From the NCBI GenBank assembly GCA_951406725.2, contig OX597838.1, positions 1,488,001-1,552,000 of the forward strand: 64,000 bases of DNA, read 5' to 3'. The DNA is from Octopus vulgaris. Taxonomy: Eukaryota. Positions 3,574 to 35,020 of this stretch are shown piece by piece. Within the stretch, counting starts at the first letter, position 1, and each line of letters starts with the position of its first letter. Position numbers and translations under genes: made by a program. The notes below the pieces were generated by a model. The model ran no database searches. It had not been told where the DNA came from and worked only from the letters and a program-made list of their open reading frames with translations.

Positions 3574-4585
3574 ATATACAGATACACATGCACATATATG
3601 TAGCAACACAAAGACAGAACGTAGAAGTGATAATAGTGGCGGCTACTTAATGGTGATAATCGGAGAAGCTGTGGTGAGATTTGAGAGAGAGAGTAAAAGA
3701 AAGACTCTATAGAACGGAAGTAGCGTGTGAGTAGGTAGTAAGGAAAGGAGGAGGGAGGTGGGTGGCTGATTGAGAAACAGTAATAAAGGTGAAAGGTGAG
3801 GGAATATAAAATAGATTTAAAAGGTTGAGTGGAGTAGTAGATATGAGAAGACTGGCCAGGTAAGTCAGGTGTTGTAGGTTGTTAGTATAAAAGTGTGAAC
3901 TCTGAATATGTGGGTGGGTTGGAGGATACCAGTGCTGGTTTTGAAGGAGGGAAGGGAAAAAACAAATAAATGGTAAAGAAGGAAGAAGATTTCTTTTTTA
4001 CACGATTATTTCTCATTTTAAAATTTTGCGACTTCTTCACTTACCCGTTTTTATTACATTAACCAATTTTCTCTGCACCCTCTTAATCTTCGATTGCATC
4101 TCCTTAGCTATAATTTATTTACATATATATATATATGTATTTTTTCATCTACTTAAGTCCCTCCTACGCTTCACGTTTCATTTTTTATTTATCTCCCAGT
4201 TGTCTTCTGATATTTCCTCACATGTAGTTCACCTCTCCATTTAAGAATTTTTCTTTTTCTTGTTTTCTTTTTCAATTTTTCTTTTTCTTGTTTTCTTCTG
4301 TTTTACTTTTCCTTGTATTTCTCATTTTTCAAAATTCCATACTTCTTTCTAATTTTTAATTTTTTCCATATTTTATTTTCCGCACCCAAATATTTTCTTT
4401 AGTTCTACATGCTTCCTTGTTTTCTGTTCTCACCTCCTGCAGCTTTTATCAAACTGGTATTTATAGGTTAAGAGTTAAAAAGGCAAAATATGGTTGGGTT
4501 GAGGGGAAAATAATACGGTTGAGAACTATGATATAAATATTTCAATGTGTATTCATAACACACTCATTTCATTACCCGCAGGGGT

Positions 4586-21320: not shown

Positions 21321-21771
21321 GTGGTATCAATACTGCCTCTGTTGCTAATAAATATAAAAGAACATCGTCAAGAATGGAGAATATCGCTTTTTTAATTGTG
21401 GAACTCACCGTATAAGTCTAGCGATGATTTCTATTGCGTGAGCAGTTTTCGATACAGTAGCCAAAGCTACAAAATACAAATCGATCCCTGTTTGATCGAT
21501 TTAATGTATGTAAAATTTATGCGAACAGAATGTTATGAATGCAATCCATTACAGTCTGAATCCTAAAAGAGCTGATAATTGGCCATAAAATATGGAGGTA
21601 AAGAACGCAGCCGAAAAGAGCGTTAAGAAGTGTTTCTGCTAAGAAAGACCAGTTTGGATTGAAACTTACGATGACGTCAATGGTCAACGAAAGAATAAAA
21701 ATATAAACACAGAAAGACCGTATCCGTACATTTATTTATCTCGTTGTTTATTTATGTTAAAAATAAATTTT

Positions 21772-22147
21772 AAAATTAACGATTATCGCCAAGCTAATAT
21801 GGCAGTCCATAATTATAAGACTTAATCTGCCGTTGATTAGCTCCAAGAGGCCATTGCCTCTAGCTAGCTATATGACGCACAAACTTGTGTCCATTATAAC
21901 CTTCGAGCAGGGAAGGTCAGCCGCTTCCTGGCTACTCTGCATTGATAAAAGGGCAAATACCCTGAAACATGTCTGCAGATGTCTGACCAGCAAGGGGAAG
22001 CGGCTGACCTCCCCTGTTCGAAGGTTATAATGGACACAGGTTCGTGTGTCATATAGCTAGAGGCGATGGCCTGTTGGAGCTAATCAAGGCCAGCTTTTGT
22101 CTTGTAGTTATGGACTGCCATATTAGCTTGGCGATAACTGTAAATTT
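21772..22147. mobile_element. Long foldback element: ~150-bp inverted arms (21772-21928 / 21996-22147) around a hammerhead motif
   Basis: ttatcgccaagctaatatggcagtccataa...aggtcagccgcttcc is mirrored by ggaagcggctgacct...ttatggactgccatattagcttggcgataa. Confidence 0.9.
21936..21979 (+). ncRNA. Minimal type I hammerhead ribozyme motif (U3:A8 variant)
   Basis: UCUGCA-UUGAUAA-A-AGGG(CAAAUA)CCCU-GAAA-CAUGU-C-UGCAGA, with perfect 6-bp stem I, 4-bp stem II, palindromic ACAUGU stem III and a GUC site (after 21973). Confidence 0.8.
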
Positions 22148-22423
22148 CCAGTACTTCTGCCGTAGTCTCCTTTAGAGAAACTTAGAAATTTTAATATTTC
22201 TAAATTTTAAAATGTTTTTGGAAAATTACGCTTATTAAATAACAAGAAAAGCACTTGTAAGGAAAGTGAAGTTTACTTTTGAAATATTTAAAGTTTTTTT
22301 TTTTATTATCTAAATCTAAAAATGCTGACGCAATGAAAACGATCGTTGGACATGTATGATGTAAGCATGAAATAAAGATGTGAGGTTCTCCAGTCTTGTT
22401 ATTGTTATTAATATACTCTTTAA

Positions 22424-22630
22424 GGCGGCGTGCTGGCAGAATCATAAATAGACCGGGAAAAATGCTTAGCGGCATTTCGTCCGTCTTTATGCTGTGAGTT
22501 CAAATTCTGCCGAGGTCGACTTTGCCTTTCGGGGTCGATTAAATAAATACCAGTTACGCACTGGGGTCGATGTAATTGACTTACCCCCTTCCCCGAATTT
22601 TAAGCCCCCTGCCTGGAGTAGAAAGGTTAT
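22424..22630 (+). mobile_element. Family A SINE
   Basis: ggcggcgtgctggcagaatc...gagttcaaattctgccgaggtcgactttgcctttcggggtcg. Confidence 0.9.
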
Positions 22631-22884: not shown

Positions 22885-23256
22885 CAAAAAGACAGAGCAA
22901 GCTATATCACCTGCAATTTTATTTCTATATTCAATTTCTTTACATATTATGTATGTATGCATGTATGTATGTATATAAGTATGTATGTATGTTATTGTTA
23001 TCAACAACCCCGGGCAACGCTGGAGTGCATTTTGTGTGGTGCGTACGTTCTGCTTGAACTCGAAAACTGAGTGCATATATATATGCATACATATATATAT
23101 ATATATATGCATATATATATAAACGACCTCGAACACACAAGTGCAAAGAAGGGAGTCAGAGAAAGGCAGAATGCTACTTATATCTGAACACTACTACAGA
23201 AATATTCTTTTAAAAAAACTTTTCTTCTAATTTTTCTAAATTTAATTATTTAATCG

Positions 23257-23300
23257 TTACAGTTGAAAAGGTCTCAAAATGACCGAAACCGGTACTGAAA
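23257..23300 (+). ncRNA. Minimal type I hammerhead ribozyme motif (U3:A8 variant)
   Basis: UUACAG-UUGAAAA-GGUC(UCAAAAU)GACC-GAAA-CCGGU-A-CUGAAA, with palindromic ACCGGU stem III and a GUA site (after 23294). Confidence 0.75.
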
Positions 23301-23350
23301 GATTCACTATAAAATCATCTTAGCATTTTCTATTTTTGACTTGTTTTTTC

Positions 23351-33859: not shown

Positions 33860-35020
33860 TAGGATGACCCCAAAAATTGCATACACACTTTAAATACTTG
33901 TAAATTAGGTGTTTATTAAAATACATTTCATTTTCAAGATTTAATAAAATCTACAGACATTATTTTATTGTTTTGTCAACGCCTATTTTCAAATTGATGT
34001 CCGTTCTGGTCCAGTCTCTGCTGGCAATGCAAAGCAATGGAATCGCAAACATCACAAAACAATTCATTTGGTATTTGTGTACATTCTCGTTCAATGGCTG
34101 CTCTCAAATCAGCGACTGTTGCAGGTTTCATAGCGTAGACTTTGTCTTTTAGGTATCCCCATAAAAAGTATAGTGGTGTGAGGTCTGGTGAACGCAGAAG
34201 GTATTCAACGAAACCCCTTCATCCAATCCACCTGTTTGGCAGGATCTCATCAAGGAATGATCTAACATAGCGATGGTAGTGTGTGGGTGCACCATCTTGC
34301 TGAAAATAAAACTCCTCATCTTCAAAGTCTTCTCTAATGCTTGGCATGAGAGACTGTTGCAGCAAGTTCAAATAAACGGGTTCAGTCACAGTAGCGTCAA
34401 AACAGAATGGTTCAATTTATTCTCTTGATGATAAGCCACACCACACTGTAACTCCTGGTAAATTAACATGGTGCTCCACCATAACATGCGGATTATCAGG
34501 TCCCCAGTAGGTGCAATTGTGGCGGTTAATTGAACCATTTAATTTGAATGTGGCCTCATCCCTGCACACAATCTTTGCTGGTAAGTGTGCTTCTTCTACA
34601 CATCGTACCAATCACCGCACACAAAACTGCACTCTTCGCTCTGGATCATCGTCATTAATAGCAGGGACTAATCTTGGAACGTAACTTTTCCATTGACAAC
34701 GCTTCAAAATGCGTTGGACAGAAGATTTTGAAATACCTGCCTCACGACTCTCTTGCTGCACAGATTTTCTTGGACTTTGGTGATTCCTTTCCAGTACTTT
34801 TTCTTGGTTTGCAGGCATTGTTGTTGTTCTTGATCTTCTGGAATGCTTCTCATGAACATTCTGAATAGTTCCATCGGCTTCAAACTTATCTCTAATTCGA
34901 ATGACGGTGAGTCGCGTCAATGGATCTGATTGAAACTCTGTCCTAAACTGTCTTTGCACTTCAACTACGTTTTCTCACTTCTAGTAGTATTTTAGAATGA
35001 ATTTCCTTTCTTCAAAGCTT
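33860..35020 (-). mobile_element. Tc1/mariner superfamily DD41D (rosa/Visitor-type) transposon remnant with one TIR left
   Basis: TIR-like taggatgaccccaaaaattgcatacacact after TA at 33858-33859, followed by a transposase pseudogene. Confidence 0.85.
33976..35020 (-). pseudogene. DD41D transposase pseudogene with DUF4817-like N-terminal HTH
   Basis: [27 protein letters not shown]...[19 protein letters not shown]...[10 protein letters not shown]...WIG*RG...RSPDLTPLYFLWGYLKDKVY...QFENRR*. Stops and frameshifts. The third Asp codon appears mutated GAC>TAC. Confidence 0.9.

Follow-up and report, generated by a model that had tools for sequence, protein, structure and literature searches.

A retrozyme-sized hammerhead repeat with Penelope-type insertion anatomy at a hairpin locus of Octopus vulgaris

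Introduction

Penelope-like elements (PLEs) leave a recognisable insertion anatomy, which is described in the relevant parts of several reports. PLEs typically show partial tandems, a neighbouring inverted copy that is truncated at its 5' end, and a tail of 30-40 bp on one side (Craig et al. 2021, PMC8557442). Arkhipova et al. (2013, PMC3846280) described terminal repeats (pLTRs) that are inverted head to head, with duplications of 8-10 bp; they also set out trans-mobilisation by pLTRs and a model of self-priming. Frangieh et al. (2024, PMC11167929) reported that the tail spans two internal start sites of reverse transcription, that AT-rich sites are cut and extended on both strands, and that cleavage by the ribozyme is dispensable in vitro.

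The minimal hammerhead ribozymes of PLEs have a U3-A8 core and a palindromic helix III, and occur as opposite-strand pairs 100-700 bp apart, according to the sections of Cervera and de la Pena (2014, PMC4209133) that deal with them. Retrozyme monomers are 170-400 nt long in the corresponding part of a later report (Cervera and de la Pena 2020, PMC7229834), and a preprint argues, in the portion relevant here, that animal retrozymes are non-autonomous PLE derivatives (Li et al., bioRxiv 10.64898/2026.07.22.740005). In the part of a recent octopus repeat annotation drawn on here, the main text mentions neither ribozyme nor retrozyme (PMC13282606).

Here we describe a hairpin locus in a window of 64,000 nt (the whole stretch of DNA analysed) and the repeat family to which it belongs. 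A preliminary description, made from the window only, had tentatively read the locus as a non-autonomous foldback element, other than a MITE, whose transcript opens its own loop by means of a hammerhead at the apex. We conclude that the hairpin is very probably a by-product of the PLE-type insertion of a retrozyme-sized unit.

Results

The inverted arms of about 150 bp and the 67-nt spacer first reported for this locus (L001 in our sample) were confirmed by inverted-repeat alignment and by fold prediction. The arms aligned in two stretches, 21773-21866/22054-22147 at 87% and 21864-21928/21996-22060 at 92%, with an arm divergence of 12.6%. The hairpin region was predicted to fold into a rod of -264 kcal/mol (z -28.9), and none of 100 shuffled sequences was equally stable. 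The extent originally assigned, 21772-22147, holds for the arms but not for the ends: the family tail carries the insertion past the end of the hairpin, and a target duplication of 13 bp, its two copies identical, had been missed. The insertion framed by this duplication spans about 21777-22200 (Table 1). Its forward copy was 88% identical to the reference monomer described below, and its two copies met at r140/r84 in the unit numbering with an overlap of 10.

Table 1 Features of the insertion in the window.
Feature	Position	Strand	Remark
Target-site duplication, left copy, 13 bp, AT-rich	21764..21776	.	Identical 13-mer at 22201; mismatched-flank control 0.1 repeats/set
Inverted 5'-truncated unit copy, about r304 to r140	21777..21928	-	First fixed 3' site, untailed
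Head-to-head junction	21928..21937	.	About 10 nt where both copies align
Forward 5'-truncated copy of the 362-nt unit, r84 to r361	21928..22200	+	
Type I hammerhead motif, U3-A8 core variant, palindromic stem III	21936..21979	+	Predicted cut after C21973
Tail, about 56 nt, between both fixed 3' ends	22147..22200	+	One side only
Target-site duplication, right copy, 13 bp	22201..22213	.	

In runs X15 and X17, contigs from the unique flanks entered the element by 21-28 letters at either end, a reach below the 31-letter bridging rule, which does no more than suggest a shared insertion. No convincing gene candidate near the element was found by eye among open frames of at least 110 aa; an open frame at 34612-34974 on the minus strand is presumably a fragment like a Tc1/mariner-type transposase. 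A very high-copy short repeat lies just downstream of the element (about 22440-22600), and its contig depth was far above that of the element in all four of four runs. A second inverted pair at 20535-20661/20849-20975 (127 nt, 85%) consists of two tail-to-tail copies of another short repeat, which is abundant (1,274 first-look candidates), terminates at (TA)n, and carries the GAAAC half of a hammerhead-like motif without an intact first half. A minimal hammerhead-like motif with a UUGAAAA core and a palindromic ACCGGU was also observed at 23249-23313. It gave a weak match to Rfam HH9 (E 0.021, under the gathering score), and motifs resembling it were seen at PLE ends near loci L042 and L050.

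The source genome was searched four times with different query parts, which gave 120 loci, and 109 were retained after 11 repeated places had been dropped. In the element search, the best 40 of 2,614 first-look candidates were scored, the latter figure not being a copy number. Because the best 40 candidates were scored per search, the sample leans to two subfamilies. The monomer was found to be 362 nt long and arranged head to tail (reference: L014, 1697-2058, cut site to cut site). Its positions are numbered here r1-r362; the core lies at r98, and cleavage is predicted at r128/129. The unit has a GC content of 40.9%, a fold z of -7.25, and longest open frames of 34 aa in sense and 62 aa in antisense; no open frame for reverse transcriptase (RT) plus GIY-YIG endonuclease was found in cis, and the unit is not classed here as an autonomous PLE. 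Its copies were solitary, arranged in partial tandems, or inverted head to head. Hammerheads were found in two consecutive units at L014, where the second motif has U at position 17, and at L119; arrays in the sample comprised at most about two units plus part of another.

The sequence before r1 was the unit's own tail, at a strict cut-off and in both subfamilies, in 50 of the 59 segments that extended this far; in the remaining nine it consisted of tail variants with indels, inversion junctions, or flank. No shared foreign flank was seen upstream of 95 5' ends. Since copies reaching r1 run into their own tail and have no common upstream sequence, the unit is self-contained and non-coding. As first proposed, the element is non-autonomous, and its family is one of retroelements. 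Contigs of presumed-RNA runs also cover the unit; such contigs are blind to ends, strand, and circles. In two such runs the unique flanks in the window had no coverage, which carries no weight in either direction.

The type I hammerhead was laid out in the window as originally read, including its predicted cut position. Stem I is formed by 21936-41/21974-79, the core UUGAUAA occupies 21942-48, and stem II (AGGG/CCCU) is formed by 21950-53/21960-63, followed by GAAA at 21964-67, the palindromic ACAUGU at 21967-72, and C17 at 21973. The extra A at 21949 is present in the window copy but is not a family trait, as the window is the only one of the 109 copies to have it. An Rfam hammerhead search, which had been suggested for this motif, gave no match at 21936-21979 with E up to 10; the part of PMC4209133 concerned states that minimal motifs are usually detected with descriptors.

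The core is conserved across the family: at 12 core positions in the 109 copies, only 26 of 1308 cells (2.0%) departed from the majority, compared with 8.2% in the arm. Swaps between U-A and C-G and between G-C and A-U were observed in stem I, and between A-U and G-C and between G-C and A-U in stem II. In stem III, CAUG was changed to CUAG in a variant, and the palindrome was kept in 108 of the 109 copies. Covariation, a test of which the preliminary description had suggested, was seen. Compensatory changes affected both sides of five stem pairs spread over stems I-III, and among 45 of 70 distinct motifs 93% of cells paired, with 89 double-sided changes, a number reached in none of 500 shuffles. 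However, the number of double-changing pairs (five) was not above that in the shuffles (258/500), and the double-sided changes represent few events that are largely traceable to the two main subfamilies. The motif looks to be under selection, and the preliminary description was right to take it for a genuine hammerhead of the PLE/retrozyme kind.

Fold prediction indicated that the closing of stem III in a monomer costs about 6 kcal/mol. In the minimum-energy monomer fold, part of the core is paired with the cleavage triplet, and this predicted shape would therefore not be the active one. Both modelled features would fit the dimer-dependent minimal hammerheads, for which a single motif gave no detectable cleavage in the relevant part of PMC4209133. 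The lone copy in the window is likely inert both as a ribozyme and as a donor.

The 3' ends of the family were largely fixed. Of 185 such ends, 151 fell at two sites, 67 at r300-309 and 84 at r355-362, and the distance between the sites corresponds to an optional tail of 56 nt. The first site is a palindromic AT-rich 8-mer, and a TA run directly followed 87 of the 185 ends. The 173 5' ends, on the other hand, varied from r12 to r334. Only two of them lay near the predicted cut (r127-131), while 4 of 28 arm-only ends lay at r125-136. A suspected truncation hot spot, where the extended stem I has its base, found no support when the less biased sets were examined (6/57, p 0.41). Among inverted loci, 15 of 64 were flanked by a non-simple duplication of 10-19 bp, as were 4 of 45 loci that lacked an inversion, compared with a mean of 0.1 in mismatched controls. 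This stricter control counts non-simple repeats of at least 10 bp; a looser one, with TA-rich matches, gave 7-13 of 109.

These ends bear on whether the locus could be an ordinary MITE or foldback DNA transposon that contains the motif by chance or capture. Such an element would explain why the copies are small and numerous and have long terminal inverted repeats, but would be hard to reconcile with asymmetric ends, variable truncation, tandem units, 10-19 bp duplications, the lack of left and right arm lineages, and a conserved ribozyme core. We regard its probability as close to nil, and the earlier view that the element is not a MITE is upheld by its asymmetric ends, variable truncation, and variable duplications.

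Head-to-head junctions numbered 63 in the 109 loci and were scattered in position, with an overlap of 1-5 nt or at least 9 nt in 44 of them. A single intact hammerhead occupied the apex of 25 of the 29 loci obtained with the hairpin query versus 9 of 80 others (3/29, 1/23, and 5/28). In the arm-only search with repeats restored, 5 of 28 places had an apex hammerhead, and 12 were inverted and 16 were not. The hairpin as such had been proposed as the unit, that is, a mobile or functional RNA in which the ribozyme in the loop opens the rod for self-priming or for siRNA/ADAR processing. The very stable fold, the recurrence of the apex layout at 34 of the 109 loci, and the dsRNA of about 150 bp that a read-through transcript would give are compatible with this proposal. 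However, the junction differs from copy to copy, the apex hammerhead is infrequent in the 80 loci not selected for a hairpin, the arms follow the haplotype of the locus rather than the side, those of the window have diverged, and the predicted monomer has a costly stem III and a sequestered core. We therefore consider a functional rod very unlikely. The actual unit is the 362-nt tandem monomer; the point of inversion varies, many inversions have no apex hammerhead, and many loci have no inversion.

One tailed and one untailed end were found in 43 of 49 classifiable inversions (p 3e-8; 44 with a looser walk). The others of the 63 comprised 6 like-ended inversions and 14 with an unclassifiable end. 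Of these 43 inversions, 17 had the tail on the arm that reached further and 26 had it on the arm with the shorter reach.

Next, the arms were compared with one another. No column separated left from right arms. The distance between arms was 0.064 within a locus and 0.106-0.117 between loci, but the closest arm belonged to the same locus in only 11 of 29. When 15 diagnostic sites were compared, the arms of one locus differed in 48 of 665 cells (7%) versus 46% when permuted, and 39 of 50 loci had at most one mismatch. Locus-private variants common to both arms gave a weak signal (3 versus a permutation mean of 0.47 and maximum of 3). Discordant arms were found at L026 (8 of 13 sites) and L027 (3 of 12 sites). 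As an observation in itself, L026 contains three unit copies of different haplotypes within one insertion, which points to a mixed template. As judged from these sequence comparisons, the mirror arm was likely made anew at each insertion, because both arms of a locus share a haplotype.

Such an arm could also be formed if the insertion proceeded as we propose but one cDNA or RNA folded back and primed itself, with one end subsequently trimmed by the endonuclease. Self-priming by fold-back was put forward for PLE palindromes in the relevant part of PMC3846280, and it is in line with rare haplotypes and deletions common to both arms, with the 44 overlapping junctions noted above, and with a first 3' end whose palindromic AT-rich 8-mer could be cut. 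A target-anchored fold-back, however, expects the tail on the further-reaching arm, whereas 26 of 43 tails were on the other arm, and the arms of L026 come from different subfamilies. A free hairpin trimmed at either end may be a further source of the mirror arm. Fold-back is in our estimation a somewhat unlikely origin, though one with an appreciable chance. Since the tail occurs on either arm, which a target-anchored fold-back does not predict, we favour priming at both internal sites.

Autonomous PLEs were sought in the source genome by a GIY-YIG search, in which 150 of 6136 candidates were scored and 40 PLE loci were drawn. The genome holds intact 781-aa RT plus GIY-YIG frames, with terminal repeats that end in (TA)n. 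UUGAUAA..GAAACAUGUA was found beside PLE sequence in 8 of the 40 loci (7 by pattern and L077 by eye), and the terminal repeat of L091 has the GAAACAUGUU form. The UUGAUAA...GAAACAUGU core, as in the unit, was present at several autonomous PLE loci. A partner with the 3' end of the unit was not found by blastn against the 40 PLE loci drawn from the 150 scored candidates, which returned one neighbouring unit copy and otherwise matches of at most 23 nt.

The unit might accordingly be the pLTR of an autonomous PLE outside the sample, with all copies being its truncated ends. The core variant is common to autonomous PLEs of this genome, and scoring was confined to the best 40 candidates of each search, both of which leave room for this reading. 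Nevertheless, copies reaching r1 continue into their own tail in both subfamilies, and tblastn with three PLE proteins matched only 4 of 109 unit loci, in none of which the PLE fragment was contiguous in sense with the 5' end of the unit. We consider a pLTR origin very unlikely.

Several PLE copies were observed in the course of these searches. L091 (1-385, 406-1485, 1745-4090, and 4788-5172) represents a young autonomous family. Its 781-aa RT plus GIY-YIG frame has a cysteine-rich linker, an open frame of 359 aa that could be assigned to no clear family lies upstream, and its terminal repeat contains a hammerhead. PLE terminal motifs at L082 (about 2500-2540) and L076 (about 2675-2705) have GCAA in place of GAAA after the UUGAUAA core. 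The PLE copy at L096 has a perfect inverted 5' copy of 766 nt (1321-2086 and 3718-4483), and its family terminates at a TATTAATA palindrome with an optional tail, like the unit; a copy of this family abuts the unit on the right at L030. At L042, a 98% inverted duplication (799-1036/1720-1957) contains part of the unit joined to the start of a PLE ORF, possibly as a result of a template switch or later rearrangement.

Discussion

Taken together, these findings make it highly probable that the window carries a truncated PLE-type insertion of a 362-nt non-coding hammerhead tandem repeat, the mirror arm of which was likely made during insertion. The preliminary description had taken PLE repeats to be normally direct; inverted head-to-head copies are in fact usual in the relevant parts of PMC8557442 and PMC3846280.

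In the mechanism that we propose, the enzymes of autonomous PLEs would copy the 362-nt unit into AT-rich DNA. Reverse transcription would begin at two internal sites, with and without the tail, one for each target strand. Both cDNAs would stop at variable points and then be joined head to head, often via short homology. A hammerhead would remain in the loop when one cDNA passed the motif and the other stopped short of it. The ribozyme is predicted to act in tandem transcripts as a dimer via the palindromic stem III, and the released monomers may circularise.

A more specific version is conceivable, in which a dimeric RT-endonuclease starts one cDNA per internal site on RNA units joined by the stem III palindrome. 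The points that can be cited for it are the one-tailed state of 43 of 49 inversions, the tail on either arm, and the common haplotype of the arms. In the parts of the literature concerned, Naiads, which lack canonical hammerheads, still make inverted insertions (PMC8557442), and ribozyme catalytic mutants insert normally in vitro (PMC11167929), both of which argue against a pairing role of stem III. We consider such paired priming quite unlikely; if true, the ribozyme would double as an RNA-pairing signal, and many copies of the family would preserve a record of the reaction.

Fold-back insertions of PLEs that contain hammerheads have been published before, and as a class the present locus is ordinary. 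Neither the family nor the one-tail count was found described in the literature searched, outside of which lay subscription journals, Repbase, and Dfam. A retrozyme-sized non-coding unit with the full PLE integration signature offers direct structural support for the recent proposal of animal retrozymes being moved by PLEs. Models of PLE inversion are also constrained by a countable regularity, the one-tail rule, under which either arm may carry the tail. Furthermore, long inverted repeats are dispersed by the family and might, if transcribed, give rise to dsRNA.

MITEs and foldback DNA transposons are short, have long inverted repeats, and occur in many copies. The present family differs from them in that neither symmetric fixed termini with a fixed-length target duplication nor separate left and right arm lineages around a fixed spacer were observed.

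Insertions of endonuclease-positive PLEs resemble those of the unit in 5' truncation, partial tandems, and a head-to-head inverted truncated copy, in a one-sided tail arising from two 3' ends and a hammerhead within the repeat, and in AT-rich or (TA)n targets with variable target duplication. The unit differs in lacking an RT/GIY-YIG ORF and in having a tail of 56 nt instead of the usual 30-40.

With the minimal PLE hammerheads, as described in part of PMC4209133, the motif shares the U3-A8 variant, a short palindromic helix III, predicted dimeric activity, and close opposite-strand pairs. In contrast to these, position 9 is usually followed directly by 10.1 in the unit family, A-U is found at 10.1-11.1 in one subfamily, and stem I extends imperfectly over about 45 bp.

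Finally, the metazoan non-LTR retrozymes, in the relevant parts of PMC7229834 and bioRxiv 10.64898/2026.07.22.740005, have in common with the unit a type I hammerhead in a non-coding monomer that measures 150-450 bp and is repeated in tandem, low GC (41% here), a compact fold (z -7.3 here), and a proposed dependence on PLEs. The unit is distinguished from them by its occurrence mostly as dispersed truncated copies. Inversions and tails of the PLE type are evident in the unit, and the relevant parts of these two reports mention neither for retrozymes.
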